From positions 28,393 to 92,392 of the forward strand of contig DATMOF010000006.1 of NCBI GenBank assembly GCA_035568395.1: a DNA stretch of 64,000 bases, written 5' to 3'. This DNA comes from Mucilaginibacter sp. (lineage in GTDB: Bacteria; Bacteroidota; Bacteroidia; Sphingobacteriales; Sphingobacteriaceae). The notes under the pieces were generated by a model. That model was not told where the DNA came from, did no database searches, and saw only the letters and a list, made by a program, of their open reading frames with translations. Positions 49,250-57,957 of this stretch are shown piece after piece; the stretch's first letter is position 1, and each line of letters opens with the position of its first letter. A program made the translations under genes and the position numbers.

Positions 49250-52200
49250 ATGGTGGCCTGCAAGTTTTTCCCTCTCCTGGTATTGCGTACGCCTGTTTAT
49301 CCCATCAAAAATTATAATCCGGCCCAGCTTAAAGCATATATCAAAGATCCCTTTTTTCAAAAAGCACTGCTGCTGGCGAGCAGGGTACTGTATGTAGAAC
49401 TCAAAAAGGCCGGTTTTGATCACGGGAAGCTAAACAAGAAAGAAAGAACGGCTTTATTGAAATACCTGAACCGGATGTGTTTCCGCCCCACCCCATTCGG
49501 GCTTTTTTCTGCATTTTCCGCTACTGAATGGTCCGCAGACGGTCATTTGAATTTGGGCAGCAGCACTATACACATTAAAAACAGCTTTGCCGCGCAAATA
49601 AATGCGGCACAAATGGTAAAATCGGCAGCAGGGCCGGAAGACCACTGTTACCAGACCAATCAAACCATTTACCCGTACGGGGATGAAATCAGATATTTGG
49701 CCTGTTTCCCCAACGACCAGCAAAACGCTTTTGAGTTTTCCATCCGCTCAATTAACAGCCACGCCGTGTTAAAACAACTCTTCACCTTTTGCAAAAAAAA
49801 GAAGCATTTTGAAACGATAAAAAACTTTCTGGGTAGCAAGTCAGGGATAACCGCAGCGGAAGCTAAGCAATTGCTTAAAGAGCTGATCGACGTGCAGGCG
49901 CTGACCGACGACCAGGCACCCCATATAACCGGCCGGGATACCGTGCCGCTGATGAATGCAACCAGCATGGGTAAGCCTGAAGACCCGGCACCCGGGGCAC
50001 CGCCCGAGCAGCTGCCGGTTAAACCGGAAACGATCATGCCTGACGCTGATTATTATGTCAACATGGAAAAAGCGGCAACCGGCGCCTTGGATACCGGTTT
50101 CCAGGGGACGATCCTGAAAGGTGTTGAATGTTTGTATTGGCTCAACGTAGCCGGCTTAGCCGCGAACAACCCGTTATGGCAGTTTATACGCGATTTTAAC
50201 CAGCAGTTTGAAGGCCGGCTTATGCCTTTATTATATGTGCTGGACCCTGGTGCCGGCATAGGGTACAAAAACCTTGCCGGGAACGATGAAAAAAGCACAT
50301 TGCTTAGCGACATCAACTGGCAGGACAGGCACGAGAAGCGGACAAATACTGCCGGCTGGACAAATACCCATGCGCTGCTGCTTTCGAAATGGAAAAACAA
50401 TCATCCCGGCAGCTTCACCAAAGTCATTTCATTATCAGCCAGTGATATAGCGCCGTTAAAGATTATGGACAGCGCCCCTGCCCTTCCGCCAACCATATCT
50501 GTATTGTTCCGGGTCATAGACGACCAGGTGCTAATTGAAAGCGCGGGCGGGGCGACAGCCAATGCGCTGATCGGGCGCTTTACACCGTTTAATGACTGCA
50601 TCCGGCGGCTGGGGTCTTCCATTGCCGCAATGGAAACACAGCATAACCCGGATGTTGTCTTCGCAGAGATAGCTCATATTTGTGATTTCCACACAGCCAA
50701 TATCAACCGGCGCGAACATCTTTATCCTTACGAAATCCCCGTGATGGCTGGTTCCCTGGTGCCGGCGGCCCGTCAGATCCCCCTCAATGACTTATGGGTA
50801 ACTGTGATAAACGGCGAGGTTATCCTGCAGTCAAAAAGGTTAAACAAGCGGGTTATACCCCGCTTGAGTTCTGCTTTCAATCACACGAGAAACAATCTTT
50901 CCATATTCCGTTTCCTTTGCGACCTGCAGTACCAGGGCGTCCATGCCGGCCTTGGGCTGGACCTAAATGCATACTTTCCAAACCTGGATTATTATCCGCG
51001 CGTGGAATGCCTGAATACTGTGCTGGCTTTGGCAACCTGGCGGGTCTCCAGGCAACAATGGCAGTCCGTCCTGGACACGGCTGACCCTGGAGACCGGTCA
51101 GGGCGTTTTAGGGCGTTTAAAAAAAGCCTGCGCCTGCCACATTGGATCGCCCTGACGGTACACGACCATCAGTTGGTTTTTAATTTAAGCAAACAGGATC
51201 ATATTGATTTTTTCCTGCAGGTCATCAAAGACCAGGAGCAGGTCACGATCAAGGAATTTCTTTCCTCCCGTGAAAAAAAAGCGGCCGTCACGGACAAGTT
51301 GCATAAGCCGTTTATTAACCAGTTTGTCGCTTCACTGTACCATGAGCAGCAGGTATATACAGCAAAGGCCGCCCCTTTCCCTGAAACTGCTGATGAGCTG
51401 TTCCGGAAAGTACCGCCGGGAACGGACTGGCTGTATTTTAAAGTGTATTGTCATCCTTCCCGGCAAAACGAATTGCTGGCCACAACGATCAGTCCCCTTG
51501 TGAAAAGCCTGTTCAAAAGACATTTGATCAGTGCGTGGTTCTTTGTGCGGTATGCCGATCCCGAACCGCATGTACGTTTCCGGCTCAGGACGGGCAGGAA
51601 TAATGCTCATCGTGCATTCCGGTTCAGCTGCCGGATGCTCAACGGAGCAATCAAGCGGCAGGCCGTGCGCCATTACAGCATTTCCGTTTACGAACGGGAA
51701 CTGGAACGCTACGGCGCTCAAACGATTCCGATTTTTGAGCATATTTTTTTTTCAAGCAGCAAGCTGGTGCTGAGCTACATGGAGACACCCGATGCTGGTG
51801 ATACCAGCATGACGCTGGAAGACTTTGCTTTTTCAGATGTATGTGTGATACTCCACGCCCTTGGTTTCACTGACGAAACGGCGGTTCATTTCCTGCAGTC
51901 ATTGTCAAACAGCTTCATGAAAGAGTTTGAACAGCCCGACTTAAAGTATCAGCTGGATCTAAAATACAGAGCTTTGGAAAAACGGATCAGCCACGTTTTA
52001 GCAACTGACCGGCGAATTTCTGGCTCCCCCCGTATCCGTACCGCTTGCCGGGAATTTACCGGGTCGTTAAAAACGCTTTTTTCCGGGACCGGTTCCAAGC
52101 CACCCGCCCAGGTAGCGAAATGGACTGCCGACATCATACATATGCACCTCAACCGGTTGTTTACGGAGGAAGCGCGCAGGCAGGAACTGGTGGTTTATTA

Positions 52201-52276
52201 TTGCCTGTTCAAATATGAGAAATCACTGAGGATGCGGCAGCTGAAAAAGATATCGCAGGGTGGCTGCCCTGCATGA
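49250..52276 (+). CDS. Class I lanthipeptide-type dehydratase (LanB; glutamylation plus elimination domains)
   Basis: LRTP start; YLNRMCFRPTPFGLF; elimination-domain motifs WLYFKVY, WFFVRYADPEPHVRFRL, YERELERYG and HMHLNRL. Confidence 0.92.
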   Translation: MVACKFFPLLVLRTPVYPIKNYNPAQLKAYIKDPFFQKALLLASRVLYVELKKAGFDHGKLNKKERTALLKYLNRMCFRPTPFGLFSAFSATEWSADGHLNLGSSTIHIKNSFAAQINAAQMVKSAAGPEDHCYQTNQTIYPYGDEIRYLACFPNDQQNAFEFSIRSINSHAVLKQLFTFCKKKKHFETIKNFLGSKSGITAAEAKQLLKELIDVQALTDDQAPHITGRDTVPLMNATSMGKPEDPAPGAPPEQLPVKPETIMPDADYYVNMEKAATGALDTGFQGTILKGVECLYWLNVAGLAANNPLWQFIRDFNQQFEGRLMPLLYVLDPGAGIGYKNLAGNDEKSTLLSDINWQDRHEKRTNTAGWTNTHALLLSKWKNNHPGSFTKVISLSASDIAPLKIMDSAPALPPTISVLFRVIDDQVLIESAGGATANALIGRFTPFNDCIRRLGSSIAAMETQHNPDVVFAEIAHICDFHTANINRREHLYPYEIPVMAGSLVPAARQIPLNDLWVTVINGEVILQSKRLNKRVIPRLSSAFNHTRNNLSIFRFLCDLQYQGVHAGLGLDLNAYFPNLDYYPRVECLNTVLALATWRVSRQQWQSVLDTADPGDRSGRFRAFKKSLRLPHWIALTVHDHQLVFNLSKQDHIDFFLQVIKDQEQVTIKEFLSSREKKAAVTDKLHKPFINQFVASLYHEQQVYTAKAAPFPETADELFRKVPPGTDWLYFKVYCHPSRQNELLATTISPLVKSLFKRHLISAWFFVRYADPEPHVRFRLRTGRNNAHRAFRFSCRMLNGAIKRQAVRHYSISVYERELERYGAQTIPIFEHIFFSSSKLVLSYMETPDAGDTSMTLEDFAFSDVCVILHALGFTDETAVHFLQSLSNSFMKEFEQPDLKYQLDLKYRALEKRISHVLATDRRISGSPRIRTACREFTGSLKTLFSGTGSKPPAQVAKWTADIIHMHLNRLFTEEARRQELVVYYCLFKYEKSLRMRQLKKISQGGCPA

Positions 52277-52283
52277 GCGCGCA

Positions 52284-53357
52284 TCACAGAGCCACCAGCA
52301 AGTGAATGCGGAACATCTCGTCGCCGTCTGTGATGTTCAGGTCAAAATTATTGCCGTAATAATTGGTCAACCTGGTTCTCGTGTTTTCGATGCCGATGCC
52401 CCACCCGGCTGAACGCTGTTTCGTTTTTTTCAGGTTCTGACAGTGCATCTCCAGTATATGGTTATTACAGGTAATGGCGACCCGGGCCGGGAAATCCGGC
52501 TTTGATAAGTCACCATGTTTATAAATATTTTCCACAAATGAAAGTAATACCAGTGGTATAATGGCTTCTCCCTGGAATGCACCTTTCGCGGAAAGGCTGA
52601 TGTTTAAACGCTCCTTAAAGCGCAACTGGTTGATCTTCACCAGGTTTTTGAGGTGGTCAATTTCATTTTCCAGGGGCACCTTCCCGTTAACGCCCGCATC
52701 CGACAGCGAATAGCGCATCATATCCGACAGCAACAGAATAGCGCCCGCGGCAGAATCCGACAATTTCCTGACCGAATTATAAATTAAGCTCAACGTATTG
52801 AACAACAGATGCGGATTCAGCTGGGACCGCAGATAGGCGTTTTGTGCTTTGATCAGGTTCTTTTCCAGTTCTGCACTGTTTATTTCCTGCCGTAGCCTGA
52901 GATTTTCCAGCTCCAGGATCATTTTTCTTTGTTTTGCCATTATCCTGGCAAACCAATAGGCTATACTGAATCCAATAAAATACACCCCCCGGTAAATACT
53001 TTGGATGAAAAAAACTTCAGTATTAAAAACATTGGCCTTTGGGTGGATGTGAACATAAATGAGCAATTTACTAATAAGGAATTGCAGACAGAGATAAACA
53101 CTCAGCTCACCAACGAGCAATAGACCTATCCCCAGGTACCGGTATCTGAACCGACTGAAGATGAATTCAAAAAAACGGGCGTTAAAATAAAACAGGCAGA
53201 TATTAAGTGTATAATGTAAGGCATAATCCCAAATACTATAATCAGCCGTGCTGGCCAAATGGAGATACGATACTTCATAGGCCACGAATAGCAGCCAGAC
53301 AACAGCGTGCCTGCCCACTGTTGTAACAGTTCGCTTATAGTCCATAAAAACGGCCAC
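52284..53357 (-). CDS. LytS/YehU-type sensor histidine kinase
   Basis: N-terminal TM helices with no large periplasmic domain; H-box SQLNPHLLFNTL; FVENIYKHG and GIGIENTRTRL motifs. Confidence 0.92.
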   Translation of the reverse strand: MAVFMDYKRTVTTVGRHAVVWLLFVAYEVSYLHLASTADYSIWDYALHYTLNICLFYFNARFFEFIFSRFRYRYLGIGLLLVGELSVYLCLQFLISKLLIYVHIHPKANVFNTEVFFIQSIYRGVYFIGFSIAYWFARIMAKQRKMILELENLRLRQEINSAELEKNLIKAQNAYLRSQLNPHLLFNTLSLIYNSVRKLSDSAAGAILLLSDMMRYSLSDAGVNGKVPLENEIDHLKNLVKINQLRFKERLNISLSAKGAFQGEAIIPLVLLSFVENIYKHGDLSKPDFPARVAITCNNHILEMHCQNLKKTKQRSAGWGIGIENTRTRLTNYYGNNFDLNITDGDEMFRIHLLVAL

Positions 53358-53458
53358 AATTTAATTAATTGATTCCATCTATTGCTTATCGCGATTGGTG
53401 TAAAATGTTCTTTAACGCATCCACAAGCTTTTAATTTAATACTTAAAAATAACAAATT

Positions 53459-53602
53459 ATGAAAGTATTGAAAAAGAAGATTAATTTAAATGCAAAAAGT
53501 GTATTTAAATTTCAAAAGAGCATGCCAAAAGCAGGATCGCCGGAAACCACAGACCCAACTACTTCTACCAGTACCACGGTGTCGACACTTATGGGCTTTT
53601 AG
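53459..53602 (+). CDS. Putative RiPP precursor, 47 aa, Cys-free, Ser/Thr-rich core (not in ORF track)
   Basis: My translation: MKVLKKKINLNAKSVFKFQKSMPKAGSPETTDPTTSTSTTVSTLMGF*. Basic leader, AT-rich upstream region, and its own hairpin terminator. Confidence 0.8.
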   Translation: MKVLKKKINLNAKSVFKFQKSMPKAGSPETTDPTTSTSTTVSTLMGF

Positions 53603-53611
53603 AAAGGGGTT

Positions 53612-53651
53612 AGCGGTGTATTTTTGTTCATTTCAGGAATACACCGCTTTT
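53612..53651 (+). terminator. Terminator or attenuator after the precursor
   Basis: AGCGGTGTATT-N15-AATACACCGCT followed by TTT. Confidence 0.65.
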
Positions 53652-53743
53652 GCCATTTGGGCTGGGTTTGTTCTTTATTAAAATATTTTCAATATCGGTA
53701 TAGTTAACTGTAAATTGTGTAATTTTAATCATATTGCACTGAT

Positions 53744-54463
53744 ATGATTACTTGTTATGTCGTAGACGATGAATATCACGCAATAGAAATATTATGTGAT
53801 ATTATTGAAAATATCCCCGGGCTGCAGCTACTTGGCCACACCACAAACCCTTTAAACGCCCTGGAATTTATTACCACACAGGTTCCTCCGGACCTGACTT
53901 TTGCGGATATCAATATGCCGGAAATGACCGGAATTGAATTTGCTGCGCTGGTGAACGACTATACGACCGTTGTTTTTACAACTGCCTATGATCATTTTGC
54001 GGTAGAGGCTTTTGAAAAAGAAGCATTCGATTATTTGCTAAAGCCCGTTACCCGTGAACGCTTTTTAAAATGCCTGACGAAATACAGGAAAGGCCATAAA
54101 CCAAATATACAGGCTAAAGAAGAATATTTTTATATCAAAGGCGATATAAAAGGAAAAATGATACGTGTGATCACAGCGGATATTATGTATATCGAAGGCG
54201 CTTTAAACTACGTTATTATTCATATGGCGGACGGCAAGCACGAGATCACTTACCTGACAATGGGCGAATTGCAAAACCAATTGTCCGGGCATTTCCTGCG
54301 GGTTCACCGTTCTTTTATTGTCAATAGCGACAAGATCAAGACCGTCGGCGGAAACAGTATTGTACTGGACGACAAAACCGTCCTTAGCATTGGGACTGTA
54401 TATAAAAACGATGTTTTTGATTCGCTGAACAGGCGATTGATCAAGACGAAAAGAATACTGTAG
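53744..54463 (+). CDS. LytTR family response regulator
   Basis: Receiver motifs VVDDE, FADINMP, FTTAY and YLLKP; LytTR domain FLRVHRSFIVN. Confidence 0.95.
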   Translation: MITCYVVDDEYHAIEILCDIIENIPGLQLLGHTTNPLNALEFITTQVPPDLTFADINMPEMTGIEFAALVNDYTTVVFTTAYDHFAVEAFEKEAFDYLLKPVTRERFLKCLTKYRKGHKPNIQAKEEYFYIKGDIKGKMIRVITADIMYIEGALNYVIIHMADGKHEITYLTMGELQNQLSGHFLRVHRSFIVNSDKIKTVGGNSIVLDDKTVLSIGTVYKNDVFDSLNRRLIKTKRIL

Positions 54464-55127: not shown

Positions 55128-56675
55128 TTAATGGGCGTCTACAGGCATCTTCACCGCCTTTTTAAAGGGCTGCAGGTAAAGCAATGGTATGGAGAACAGC
55201 ATTACCAATCCCGATATCCAATAGGCATCGTCATAGGTGAGCAGCATCGTTTGCTTCATTACAGCTCCTTCAATTGCCGCGTAGGCCATGTGCGTGGCGT
55301 CTATTACAGATTTACCCTTGGCAACAAACCCGTGCATCAGCAAACTGAACCTGTCGTTAAAGGCCGGGTTGTAAATATTGATATTAGATAGCAGGTTATT
55401 GCGGTGAACACCCTCGCGCAAGTGTATAATGGTAGTGAGCGTTGCGATACCGAACGAACCACCAAGCTGGCGCATCATGTTGTTTAAGCCCGTGCCCTGG
55501 CCCAGTTCGGGGCCCTTGAGGTCGGCGATAGCCAGCGTGGTAAGCGGAACAAATAATAGCGCCATACCTACACCCCTTATCAGCAGCGGTATCAATACAT
55601 CGGCCTGCCCGGTGCTCAGCGTCGAATTGCTGAGCATCGTGGTAAACACAAAGAACATGAACATACCTGCCGTAGCCATAAATTGCGCCGGGATACCCCT
55701 GTTGAGCATCTTACCGATAAATGGCATCATCACAATGGTACACAACCCACCGGGGAACAGCAGCTCGCCGGTTTGCTGCGCGGTAAAGCCAAGCAAATTC
55801 TGGCAAAACACCGGGAACACAAATACCGACCCGTACAGACCGAAACCAAGCACAAACGAGGTAAACATACCCACGGCAAAGCTGCGGTGCCGCATAATGC
55901 CGAAGTTTACGATCGGGTGGTCGGTGCTAAGCTCGCGCCATATAAAGCAGATGGTGCCAATAATGGCGGTGATGGTAAGCAGCAATATGTAGGGTTTGGC
56001 AAACCAGTCTTCCGATTCGCCCTTTTCCAGGATGGTTTGCAAGCTGCCCACCGCTACGGCAAGCAGGCCGATGCCCCACCAGTCGATGGGTTTTCCCTTC
56101 GCTTCCTTTGGTGTTTTATGAATAAACGTATAAGCGCAAAATGCCGCTATTGCCCCCACCGGGATGTTCACATAAAATATCCACCGCCACGAGGTGTGGT
56201 CGGTAATATAACCCCCAATGGTAGGACCGACGGTTGGGCCAACAACCGCGCCTAAACCGAATAAAGCGGTTGCGGTACCGATCTGTTCGCGCGGCCAGGT
56301 TTCAATCAGGATAGCCTGCGAGGTTGAAATCAATCCCCCGCCCGCAAGGCCCTGTAATATACGGAAGATGACCAGCTCGCTCAAGCCGTGCGCATTACCA
56401 CATAAAAACGAGGCGATGGTAAATACGATGATCGAAGTAATAAAGTAATTCTTCCGCCCGAACCGGCTCCCCAGCCAGCCCGACATCGGCAGGATGATCA
56501 CATTCGCTACAGCGTAGCCTGTAACCACCCACGCAATATCTTCGAGTGTAGCGCCCAGGTTACCCTGTATATCAGGTAAGGATACATTCACGATCGTGGT
56601 ATCGATCAGCTCCAGCAACGAAGCAACGATAACCGTAATGGTAATGATCCACTTTTTAAAGCCAGTTTCTGCCAT
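55128..56675 (-). CDS. DHA2 family MFS efflux permease (EmrB/QacA-like)
   Basis: LIDTTIVNVSLP, WLGSRFGRK and WRWIFYVNIPVG motifs; about 14 TMs. Confidence 0.95.
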   Translation of the reverse strand: MAETGFKKWIITITVIVASLLELIDTTIVNVSLPDIQGNLGATLEDIAWVVTGYAVANVIILPMSGWLGSRFGRKNYFITSIIVFTIASFLCGNAHGLSELVIFRILQGLAGGGLISTSQAILIETWPREQIGTATALFGLGAVVGPTVGPTIGGYITDHTSWRWIFYVNIPVGAIAAFCAYTFIHKTPKEAKGKPIDWWGIGLLAVAVGSLQTILEKGESEDWFAKPYILLLTITAIIGTICFIWRELSTDHPIVNFGIMRHRSFAVGMFTSFVLGFGLYGSVFVFPVFCQNLLGFTAQQTGELLFPGGLCTIVMMPFIGKMLNRGIPAQFMATAGMFMFFVFTTMLSNSTLSTGQADVLIPLLIRGVGMALLFVPLTTLAIADLKGPELGQGTGLNNMMRQLGGSFGIATLTTIIHLREGVHRNNLLSNINIYNPAFNDRFSLLMHGFVAKGKSVIDATHMAYAAIEGAVMKQTMLLTYDDAYWISGLVMLFSIPLLYLQPFKKAVKMPVDAH

Positions 56676-56716
56676 TATGATATTTTTATCTTACGTAAAG
56701 AGCCGGAAGCTCAATT

Positions 56717-56797
56717 AATATCGAACACCGAATGCTGAATTTTGAATGATGAAGTTCAACTTCGATGTTGGACATTCGGCATTCATTATTCGATATT
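56717..56797. repeat. Nested palindromic intergenic element
   Basis: Nested arms AATATCGAA/TTCGATATT, CCGAATG/CATTCGG and GAAGTT/AACTTC. Confidence 0.65.
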
Positions 56798-56800
56798 CTT

Positions 56801-57865
56801 TTAGTTTTTATATATCACCGATACAGCCACGCTCATCCCTGGCCGAAGCTTTGCCATGTCCTCTGCTGAACCATTGATCTTTATCTTAACAGGTACCCGC
56901 TGAACCACCTTAACAAAGTTACCGGTAGCGTTATCAGGGGGCAGCAGTGAGAATTTAGCGCCTGTTGCCGGCGAAAAGTTATATACTGATCCGGTCAATT
57001 TTAAGTTGGGATAGGCGTCCACATCAATATTTACTTTTTGGCCATTCTGTATTTTATCCAGCTGAGTCTCTTTAAAGTTGGCTGTGATATAAATGCTGTT
57101 ATCGTTAACGATAGAAAATAACGTTTGCCCGGCCTGCACCAGTTGCCCTACCTGCACATTCTTTTTCGATACTATTCCGCTCGACGGCGCCTTAACGGTT
57201 GTGTAAGATAACTGCAGCTTAGCATAATCTACGTCCACCTGGCGCTGCGACACGCCTTTGTTGGTTACATTTAATTCGCTTCGCGTAGCGCCAACCTGCT
57301 CTTGCGCAGCTTTATACTGGTCTTGTGAACTCTGGTAGTTTGCTTGTGCCACTTCCAGGTCGGCTTTTGCCTGGTCAAACTGCTGGCGGGTTATTGAGCC
57401 GTCCTGTACCAGGTTGGCATACCGCTGGTAATCTTTTTTTACCTTATCAAGCTGCGCTGCCGCAGATGTTACTTTGGCCCTGGCGGCAGCAGAATTGGCG
57501 GTATTCTCATAAATTTGAGATTGCCCGACGCCAACATTGGCGCTTGCGCCGGTTACAGCAGCTTGTGCTTGTTCAACCTTAACTTTATAGTCGCGGTCGT
57601 CAATTTTAACCAGCACCTGGTCTTTGTTAACATGGGTGTTTTCCTCGAAATAGATACTGTCCACATACCCGCTTACACGTGCAACAACCGGGCTAATATC
57701 GCCATCAATTTGCGCGTCGTCCGTATCTACGTGTTTCCCGTAGTATATATACTCTTTTATCCCGAAAACGACACCCGCAAGCAGTATGATACCTAATACG
57801 ATCGGCAATACTCTGTTGGGTTTCTTTTTAGTTTCAGTTGTGTGGGTTTCGTGTTCCTTTGCCAT
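56801..57865 (-). CDS. HlyD/EmrA family efflux adaptor
   Basis: TDDAQIDG, ANFKETQL and LPPDNATGNFVKVVQRVPVKI motifs. Confidence 0.95.
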   Translation of the reverse strand: MAKEHETHTTETKKKPNRVLPIVLGIILLAGVVFGIKEYIYYGKHVDTDDAQIDGDISPVVARVSGYVDSIYFEENTHVNKDQVLVKIDDRDYKVKVEQAQAAVTGASANVGVGQSQIYENTANSAAARAKVTSAAAQLDKVKKDYQRYANLVQDGSITRQQFDQAKADLEVAQANYQSSQDQYKAAQEQVGATRSELNVTNKGVSQRQVDVDYAKLQLSYTTVKAPSSGIVSKKNVQVGQLVQAGQTLFSIVNDNSIYITANFKETQLDKIQNGQKVNIDVDAYPNLKLTGSVYNFSPATGAKFSLLPPDNATGNFVKVVQRVPVKIKINGSAEDMAKLRPGMSVAVSVIYKN

Positions 57866-57957
57866 TATATTTTTAATTATTGAATGAGTGAGTTAGTGAA
57901 TGGGTGATTTAGTTTGTTTAAATTATCTGCACATCTGGAATCTGCACATCCGCACAT

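Follow-up and report, generated by a model that had tools for sequence, protein, structure and literature searches.

Peptide quorum sensing is regarded as a Gram-positive trait, and we know of no established peptide signal/receptor system in the Bacteroidota. Two kinds of described system lie closest to the locus analyzed here, which was found in a 64,000-nucleotide stretch of DNA from Mucilaginibacter sp. (assembly GCA_035568395.1, contig DATMOF010000006.1, positions 28,393 to 92,392; below, the window). The first is nisin (NisA, NisB, NisC, NisT, NisP, and NisRK), with which the locus shares a leader followed by a Ser/Thr-rich core, a full-length LanB of the glutamyl-tRNA type, and a two-component system in the cluster that is possibly self-inducing. 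The second comprises the LytTR pheromone circuits of the Firmicutes (agr AgrDBCA, ComCDE, PlnABCD, and BlpRH), in which, as here, a small peptide gene adjoins a polytopic kinase and a LytTR regulator. With a probability that we put at roughly 0.55, the small gene in the window encodes a Cys-free, LanB-dependent, LanC-independent modified peptide that is paired one to one with a two-component system; within this reading, we infer dehydration, leader removal, export, sensing, and repeat binding. By analogy, the system can be viewed as a cross of nisin-type autoinduction and agr/com-type LytTR circuits, with a predicted product that would be linaridin-like.

The peptide gene runs on the + strand from the ATG at 53459 to the TAG at 53600-53602 and encodes 47 aa (MKVLKKKINLNAKSVFKFQKSMPKAGSPETTDPTTSTSTTVSTLMGF); the feature as a whole (53459..53602) is defined by its sequence, its homologues, its composition, and the ratio of nonsynonymous to synonymous substitution rates (dN/dS). 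Alignment suggests a boundary between a proposed leader of approximately residues 1-27 (53459-53539, + strand), with a net charge of +8, and a proposed core of residues 28-47 (PETTDPTTSTSTTVSTLMGF; 53540-53599, + strand), in which 11 of 20 residues are Ser or Thr and none is Cys. The product has neither a transmembrane helix nor a signal peptide. A six-frame translation of the source genome yields 11,332 ORFs that start with ATG and measure 35-80 aa; two of them contain at least eight Thr in 16 residues, and one of these is the peptide ORF, which adjoins the sole LanB of the genome. A sequence-only reading of the window had described the frame as a missed ORF with precursor-like architecture. 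That reading placed it below the ORF-track cut-off, but the exact 47-aa protein is already present in a public protein collection, so that gene callers did not wholly miss it; Pfam and NCBIfam searches returned no named family for it. The precursor-like architecture was borne out by a genuine, conserved gene in which the leader is conserved and the core varies, and which co-occurs with LanB without exception at genome level.

Within the leader, residues 8-20 (INLNAKSVFKFQK; 53480..53518, + strand) follow the family pattern [LI]-x2-K-x2-[VL]-[FY]-x-[FY]-K, in which family alignments show F18 without exception and L10 at 90% conservation or more. The pattern recurs in Pedobacter-like, Pontibacter, and Chitinophagaceae members. 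The segment INLNAKSVFKF, which had been proposed as a LanB recognition element by likeness to an FxLx-type motif, holds the family-conserved L10, F16, and F18 and the flanking Lys residues; the likeness to FxLx or FNLD is one of analogy only, and the motif differs. Across the family, the N-terminal half is Lys-rich and best conserved. The leader is nearly invariant within subfamilies (MKATGQKLKKLKT[KR]QVYGFKK in the largest, KK-x-NL-x2-K-x2-F-[KT]-F in that of the source-genome peptide), and a short variable linker, often Gly-rich, connects it to a variable, Thr-rich core that opens with a nearly invariant DPTT and closes with a small number of hydrophobic or aromatic residues. Cys is lacking from the core in most members. 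In Pedobacter-like LanB loci, the peptide genes occur as 2-5 tandem, near-identical copies (e.g., MKAQ..KLAKKTVFVYKSVKDQNNFVTNPISDQSQTVVTNGTFIVNF; L058-L061). The layout is that of a generic precursor of peptides that are made on the ribosome and modified after translation (RiPPs): a short gene, a conserved leader, a variable core, a modifying enzyme that is adjacent or co-occurring, and sometimes tandem copies. The peptide gene is probably the precursor of an undescribed Cys-free modified peptide.

A six-frame search of relatives located syntenic Mucilaginibacter copies between a LytTR regulator and a PF06580 kinase, adjoining LanB. A three-sequence profile recovered syntenic homologues in 8 of 229 Mucilaginibacter genomes, and a 42-sequence profile found the peptide in 44 of 401 Sphingobacteriaceae genomes. 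In protein collections, 47 small proteins among 5.8 billion match a seven-member profile, most of them nameless and all named ones called hypothetical protein; among 1.84 billion representatives, 65 clusters (50% identity) match at E <= 0.001, almost all of them 43-97 aa in length. When 401 genomes from across the phylum were searched with the profile, at a whole-genome scale for which it is too weak, peptide matches came solely from Sphingobacteriaceae; a restriction to that family was withdrawn on the clear Pontibacter and Chitinophagaceae members that a LanB-anchored scan provided. Two broken Mucilaginibacter copies were also encountered. One (G011:C70, ~93.6 kb; L003/L015) has a 1-nt deletion directly after the ATG (ATGAAAGC-TCA), and the other, in a complete genome (G162:C1, ~3.272 Mb; L019/L027), has a frameshift between leader and core; they represent either gene decay in some strains or sequencing errors.

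Synonymous sites approach saturation, and dN/dS was limited to the seven locus pairs in which they are unsaturated; values of 0.17-0.31 indicate that the reading frame is under purifying selection. The sequence-only reading had let its proposal stand or fall with conservation of the frame in syntenic loci, and the frame proved to be conserved there. The same data bear on a reading of the ORF as a chance frame, or as a Thr-codon attenuation leader peptide that would control the downstream regulator via a hairpin. Its Thr runs do resemble the thr operon leader peptide, and in the window the ORF is separated from the regulator gene by a strong hairpin. The best conserved part of the peptide, however, is formed by the non-Thr residues of its N-terminal half, the dN/dS values speak against a chance frame, and there would be nothing to attenuate, because most loci have no same-direction gene after the peptide. 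Contradicted by these comparative data, the attenuator was rejected on gene order and conservation pattern, and either form of this explanation is extremely unlikely. Gene order also undercuts the earlier suggestion that a terminator keeps the peptide expressed above the downstream LytTR gene: the arrangement suits the source locus only, the regulator not being downstream of the peptide in most loci.

The candidate modifying enzyme is encoded at 49250..52276 on the + strand. It is a full-length LanB-type dehydratase of 1008 aa with glutamylation and elimination domains, identified by Pfam (Lant_dehydr_N, 6e-82; Lant_dehydr_C, 3e-57), by alignment, and as a single copy; NCBIfam labels its C-terminal domain as a thiopeptide-type bacteriocin biosynthesis protein. 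Alignment to NisB and MadB places YLNR and RPTPFG at NisB Y80, R83, R87, and T89, HVRFR at R784 and R786, ERELERYG at E823 and R826, and IIHMHLNRL at H961. The importance of Y80, R83, R87, T89, and H961 in NisB has been documented (PMC4341554). Because equivalents of the catalytic residues are kept, both half-reactions of LanB look intact. The source genome, which is 99.8% complete, holds exactly one LanB, and searches of it with PF05147 for LanC and with PF03412 for C39 peptidases each returned zero matches.

Comparative genomics ties this enzyme to the peptide from both directions. LanB is present in 44 of 44 peptide-positive genomes versus 145 of the 401 Sphingobacteriaceae genomes overall, and it adjoins the peptide in every Mucilaginibacter locus inspected with enough context and is usually adjacent overall; any LanC is found in only 12 of the 44. 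In the reverse test, a profile of twelve module LanBs, applied to one genome per species, yielded 318 relatives, the best 80 of which were inspected. Among these 80, a kinase and a regulator lie within 6 kb in 69, a profile-matching peptide is found in 54, and LanC lies within 6 kb in 5; of 14 profile-negative loci inspected, 12 have an equivalent Thr-rich small ORF at the same position. The module therefore occurs in three or more orders, as the LanB-anchored loci belong to Mucilaginibacter, Pedobacter, Daejeonella, Hufsiella, and Sphingobacterium, to Pontibacter (Cytophagales), and to several Chitinophagaceae. In a maximum-likelihood tree, a single branch (SH-aLRT 100) separates 20 module LanBs from 12 LanC-linked LanBs of the same bacterial family, and none of 500 label shuffles clustered as well.

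These associations argue for LanB as the enzyme that acts on the peptide, a claim that we hold to be likely; its chemistry would be dehydration. If the peptide were instead a target or partner of the two-component system and LanB modified some other, unrecognized peptide, the many Pedobacter-like loci in which peptide, kinase, and regulator lack an adjacent LanB would be accommodated readily. Against such an arrangement stand the genome-level co-occurrence in 44 of 44 genomes, the recurrence of the peptide beside LanB across three orders in the LanB-anchored search, and the situation in the source genome, where LanB is single, the sole Thr-rich small ORF of such kind adjoins it, and the 526 bp upstream of lanB contain no other candidate precursor. 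This alternative is very unlikely.

Modification by LanB would not make the product a class I lanthipeptide. Tested against the features of that class, the system has a LanB with both domains and lacks LanC, core Cys, and the known leader motifs. It further differs from nisin-type systems in having no FNLD box, LanT, LanP, or immunity genes, in a regulator of the LytTR type where that of nisin is of the OmpR type, and in LanBs that form a lineage apart from the LanC-linked ones. Class I lanthipeptide leaders of Bacteroidetes follow LxLxKx5L...GG (PMC7268733). Such Bacteroidota lanthipeptides (pinensins; PedA15 of Pedobacter lusitanus) resemble the peptide family in phylum, often in the very genomes that encode them, in LanB, and in a Lys-rich leader, but a conserved GG site, Cys, and LanC are all missing from the family. 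Ordinary LanA genes, with LSLNKETIAKL...GG leaders (e.g., MKKKPIKVSKSLSLDKETISKLDENQLNEVAGG) and Cys-rich cores, are found at the LanC-linked loci of the same bacterial family, and the canonical LanA leaders from these loci did not match the peptide family profile even at E < 10. The peptide system is not a class I lanthipeptide system. Despite the Cys-free peptide, a LanC-like gene lies within 6 kb in a few modules (G112:C6:3109-8285, L045; G099:C14:24-34 kb; L144, from Mucilaginibacter oryzae; L080; L081; L153), the match in G112 being partial (model positions 4-294); these genes may belong to neighboring canonical clusters or represent a relic cyclase.

Two further groups of peptides invite comparison. 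The linaridins (cypemycin and legonaridin) resemble the predicted product in being linear and ring-free, with several dehydrobutyrines derived from a Thr-rich core. They differ in their origin from Actinobacteria, in their leaders, and in having no LytTR pairing, the dehydration on the side of the present family being itself a prediction. To our knowledge, linaridin dehydration does not use LanB and relies instead on LinH/LinL-type proteins. The presence of LanB argues for a route other than that of the linaridins, for whose genes no search was made. LanB-type enzymes outside the lanthipeptides, namely the split dehydratases of thiopeptides and goadsporin and the small LanB peptide aminoacyl-tRNA ligases, likewise use the LanB fold without a cyclase. 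The enzyme considered here, by contrast, is one full-length, two-domain protein with no YcaO or azole genes nearby, and it is not ligase-only, because the elimination domain is present.

The most constant partner of the peptide is a kinase/regulator pair which, together with LytTR-type repeats 5' of the gene, the sequence-only reading had overlooked. The membrane histidine kinase (52284..53357, − strand; 357 aa) is encoded divergently from the peptide gene. Pfam and hydropathy analyses show 3-4 transmembrane segments in its first 135 residues, followed by PF06580 His_kinase (5.6e-20) and a weak GHKL match; the AgrC-type GHKL model HATPase_c_5 scores 0.008, below the cut-off. Hydropathy revealed no periplasmic domain. 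With its sensor embedded in the membrane and no such domain, the kinase must sense something in or at the membrane. The response regulator (53744..54463, + strand; 239 aa) consists of a receiver and a LytTR DNA-binding domain according to Pfam, and its nearest NCBIfam model, BtsR, falls below the cut-off. The kinase is divergent from the peptide in every locus read, and the regulator stands alongside wherever the sequence sufficed. In six further members on long contigs, the same four genes (LanB, LytTR regulator, PF06580 kinase, and peptide) were found each time, with flanks that are unrelated between loci and with no LanC or transporter inside the module in any of the six.

The Pedobacter-like genus separates the pair from the enzyme. 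There, 8 of 12 peptide loci have no LanB nearby and consist of a peptide/kinase/regulator triad. Four such genomes were inspected; in each, the LanB examined (the sole one found) belongs to another module of this kind, which holds the peptide gene in 2-5 tandem copies, and these LanB-carrying genomes hold one or two extra LanB-less triads (L046-L057). The coexistence of LanB-less triads with one LanB module indicates that each peptide keeps its own kinase and regulator and that the enzyme can be shared in trans. This pattern is the expectation for ligand/receptor pairs. The constancy of the kinase and regulator, and the LytTR-type repeats that precede the gene, shift the interpretation from a plain LanB substrate to a signal paired with a receptor. 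That the peptide gene is genuine and functionally tied to its kinase, regulator, and LanB partners is concluded with high confidence; for the modified product as the ligand of its own kinase, we would give roughly even odds.

The same observations allow a second explanation to be weighed, in which the product serves chiefly as a lantibiotic-like weapon or morphogen, a dehydropeptide with antimicrobial or surface activity, and the kinase and regulator just control its production without sensing it as a dedicated signal. LanB products are classically antimicrobial, and bioactivity is known from linear dehydrated peptides like the linaridins. Genes that could suit such a role are also found nearby: in one locus subgroup, the neighbors of the module include a radical SAM enzyme, a C39-ABC exporter, and a barrel protein of the outer membrane, and in the window an MFS/HlyD/TolC efflux operon is encoded 0.7 kb downstream. 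The module is not, however, accompanied by any conserved immunity gene or exporter, and the flanks vary by locus. A dedicated kinase and regulator for each peptide, even in triads without the enzyme, fits ligand/receptor pairs better than several toxins under one regulator. A chiefly antimicrobial role is therefore considered unlikely, and it is compatible with a signaling role, nisin providing the analogy of a peptide that is both.

As in the Firmicutes LytTR circuits, peptide, receptor, and binding site appear to have diversified in concert, and a genome can hold several paralogous sets. A further likeness is the presence of imperfect direct repeats, phased at ~21 bp, just 5' of the peptide gene, although binding to them is a prediction in the present case. 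There are also differences. The host here has two membranes; the kinase belongs to PF06580 and not to HPK10; AgrB is absent, and a C39-ABC exporter is not obligatory; and the proposed modification is dehydration by LanB, not thiolactone formation or simple cleavage. The peptide system is not a member of the agr/com family, from which it differs in kinase subfamily and in the absence of a dedicated exporter.

LytTR regulators (AgrA, ComE, PlnC, and BtsR) bind direct repeats of 9-10 bp separated by spacers of 11-13 bp. Alignment, spacing, and a matrix point to a bipartite box of direct repeats, to which the LytTR regulator would bind, at 53374..53407 on the + strand. Its half-sites are ATCTAT (distal, 53377-53382) and TTGGTGTAA (proximal, 53395-53403), with GTGTAA 61 nt 5' of the peptide ATG. 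In the 10 loci in which the box was aligned, it reads TTgGTATAtA-N11-TTGGTGTAATAAC, and GTGTAA lies 57-68 nt 5' of the ATG. Spacing was also assessed with no assumed sequence, as the best 10-mer self-match in the region from -115 to -30 of 33 loci, which are related to one another and hence not fully independent. The mean self-match was 6.85 at a spacing of 21 bp versus 4.7-6.1 at the other spacings from 11 to 32, and 200 shuffled sequences gave 5.38 +/- 0.17 and never exceeded 5.85; in 10 of the 33 loci, eight or more of the 10 positions match at 21 bp. The repeat words vary by subfamily (GGTGTAAT, TATATAATA, TGGTATA, and CTATAA), which fits a regulator that co-diversifies with its own site, as would be expected.

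For a genome-wide scan of 8.1 million positions, a matrix was trained solely on sites that lie upstream of the peptide gene in nine other genomes. Its best match in the source genome, at 22.2 bits, is a second bipartite box at 48894..48927 on the − strand (GTTATCTATCTTATAGTCTCTTTCGTGTAATAAA), located 330 bp 5' of lanB and 180 nt 5' of an operon (ATG 48723) that encodes a 337-aa protein, a chagasin-type inhibitor, and a C1 protease. The strict pattern [AG]TCTA[TC]-N11-13-YBSGTGTAA occurs at two sites only in 4.07 Mb, 53374-53407 and 48894-48927. In M. gilvus, where the gene order is as in the window, the second box is directly upstream of lanB.

Based on these data, a mechanism can be proposed. 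The Lys-rich leader (approximately residues 1-27; motif L-x2-K-x2-VF-x-F-K) would dock the peptide on the single LanB of the genome, which would glutamylate Thr and Ser residues of the core and eliminate glutamate to give a linear peptide rich in dehydrobutyrine and dehydroalanine. Thioether rings are impossible, because the core has no Cys and the genome no cyclase. After removal of the leader by a protease, the product would act on the all-membrane sensor of the divergent PF06580 kinase, which in turn would phosphorylate the LytTR regulator. Binding of the regulator to the 21-bp-phased repeats that precede the peptide gene, and to the second box upstream of lanB, would close a positive feedback loop, as in the nisin, agr, or com systems.

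Several observations weigh against this interpretation. The kinase is of the LytS/YehU type (PF06580) and not of the HPK10 type of known peptide-pheromone sensors. At the DNA level, the peptide box of the source locus is a poor internal repeat, with agreement between the half-sites at 4 of 10 positions, and it ranks second in the window and only tenth genome-wide by the matrix; the second box faces away from lanB, toward the protease operon; and the relatedness of the 33 loci tempers the spacing test. The two broken Mucilaginibacter copies imply that the gene is dispensable in some strains. Two public runs of undefined library type, from one organism, contain short, low-depth contigs of a ~98%-identical relative over 53334-53543 and 53425-53811, and these were not counted as transcription. 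Finally, no exporter or leader protease was found in the conserved module. With none in the module and no C39 peptidase in the genome, release of the product from a two-membrane cell is left unexplained.

The export problem is avoided if the peptide is not released at all and serves as an intracellular modulator of the membrane kinase, as MgrB does on PhoQ, or as a cell-autonomous feedback switch whose activity or stability is tuned by LanB. The lack of a signal peptide, an exporter, and a C39 peptidase in the source genome, a kinase sensor that is solely membrane-embedded, and the strict pairing of peptide and kinase would all be explained. On the other hand, the peptide has no transmembrane helix, the leader/core split and tandem copies are typical of processed, released modified peptides, and one subgroup has a C39-ABC exporter next door. 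We regard an unreleased peptide as quite unlikely and retain the released, LanB-modified signal as the preferred interpretation.

The subgroup in question (L014 602-8849, L015 1477-8714, and L027 10899-17969) combines an OMP_b-brl_3 outer-membrane protein, a radical SAM enzyme, and the C39-ABC exporter adjoining the module, with a gap of 0.7-1.2 kb that could hold further precursor genes; these genes possibly constitute an export route or a separate modified-peptide cluster. In some other modules, two tandem PF06580 kinases lie between the regulator and the peptide gene (L033 5682-7867, L097, L108, and L111). The efflux operon of the window (55128-59956, − strand), which lies 0.7 kb past the LytTR gene and encodes a TetR regulator, TolC-like and HlyD-like proteins, and an EmrB-like MFS pump, is not kept with the module in other genomes. 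Neither is the operon next to the second box (45469-48723, − strand; the 337-aa protein, the I42 chagasin-type inhibitor, and the papain-like C1 protease) kept beside the module elsewhere; in the source genome it may be an output of the circuit or supply the leader protease. A 29-aa hydrophobic ORF (MTALSRHHILNIFLSFNLILSLLKGSVTT; 48724-48850, − strand) begins 54 nt past GTGTAA in the second box, and peptide genes start equally far past their own box. It was rejected as a peptide paralogue, being unlike the family, and may be due to chance; no other candidate precursor was found in the 526-bp region upstream of lanB.

The immediate surroundings of the peptide gene contain the features that the sequence-only reading had listed: the ORF at 53459-53602, an A/T-rich upstream region, an 11-bp hairpin, and a divergent region of ~100 bp are all present. 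The 15 bases 5' of the ATG (53444..53458, + strand; TAAAAATAACAAATT) form an A-rich translation initiation region without a Shine-Dalgarno sequence, and homologues likewise have A-rich stretches at this position. Shine-Dalgarno pairing is largely dispensed with in Bacteroidota. Between the repeat box and the ATG lies a candidate Bacteroidetes-type -7 promoter element (TAATTTAA; 53432..53439, + strand), with similar TAnnTT boxes at the equivalent place in homologous loci. The divergent region shared with the kinase gene measures 101 bp from the GTG at 53357, or 113 bp if the ATG at 53345 is the kinase start.

Fold energy and pairing define a stem-loop on the + strand (53612..53648) that starts 10 nt past the stop codon and is followed by UUUU. 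Its arms, AGCGGTGTATT (53612-53622) and AATACACCGCT (53638-53648), pair perfectly over 11 bp in a stem extendable to 15 bp, and the free energy of -27.6 kcal/mol (z = -5.0) was reached by none of 200 shuffles. A simple terminator scan did not list the hairpin at 53612-53648, because only four U precede GCC. A strong hairpin directly 3' of the stop codon recurs in 10 of 13 homologous loci, and the stem-loop of the source locus is a probable terminator, attenuator, or mRNA stabilizer. The contigs of the ~98%-identical relative cover the peptide gene preferentially; the variant that they carry has K20Q, one synonymous change, and a 1-nt deletion past the stop codon.

No description of the module turned up in a literature search that covered LanB in combination with LytTR, with Bacteroidetes, Mucilaginibacter, and Pedobacter lusitanus, as well as LanB without a cyclase, with a mention in Caetano 2020 or Bothwell 2021 being possible; the only paper encountered in which LanB and LytTR both appear is unrelated. 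Precursor genes of cyclase-less LanB loci go unnamed, entered in databases as hypothetical proteins or with no name at all, and the family accounts for many cyclase-less LanB genes that genome mining has flagged as incomplete lanthipeptide clusters. If the proposed reading is true, LanB dehydratases gain a role beyond lanthionine formation, in making linear dehydropeptide signals. The 21-bp repeat boxes let a regulon be predicted from sequence, the prediction in the source genome being the cysteine protease operon. At its widest, the proposal would be one of agr-like signaling in Sphingobacteriales, Chitinophagales, and Cytophagales by linear, LanB-dehydrated, Thr-derived signals, each with its own kinase and LytTR regulator, the paralogous sets acting as channels that share one LanB, and the papain-like protease/inhibitor operon being switched on in the present genome; we advance this broader view tentatively, at somewhat less than even odds. 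For a phylum dominant in soil, water, and gut, the peptide family offers a concrete candidate signaling system with all parts named (precursor, enzyme, receptor kinase, regulator, and DNA site), and it suggests that Bacteroidota use modified peptides as self-induced signals.

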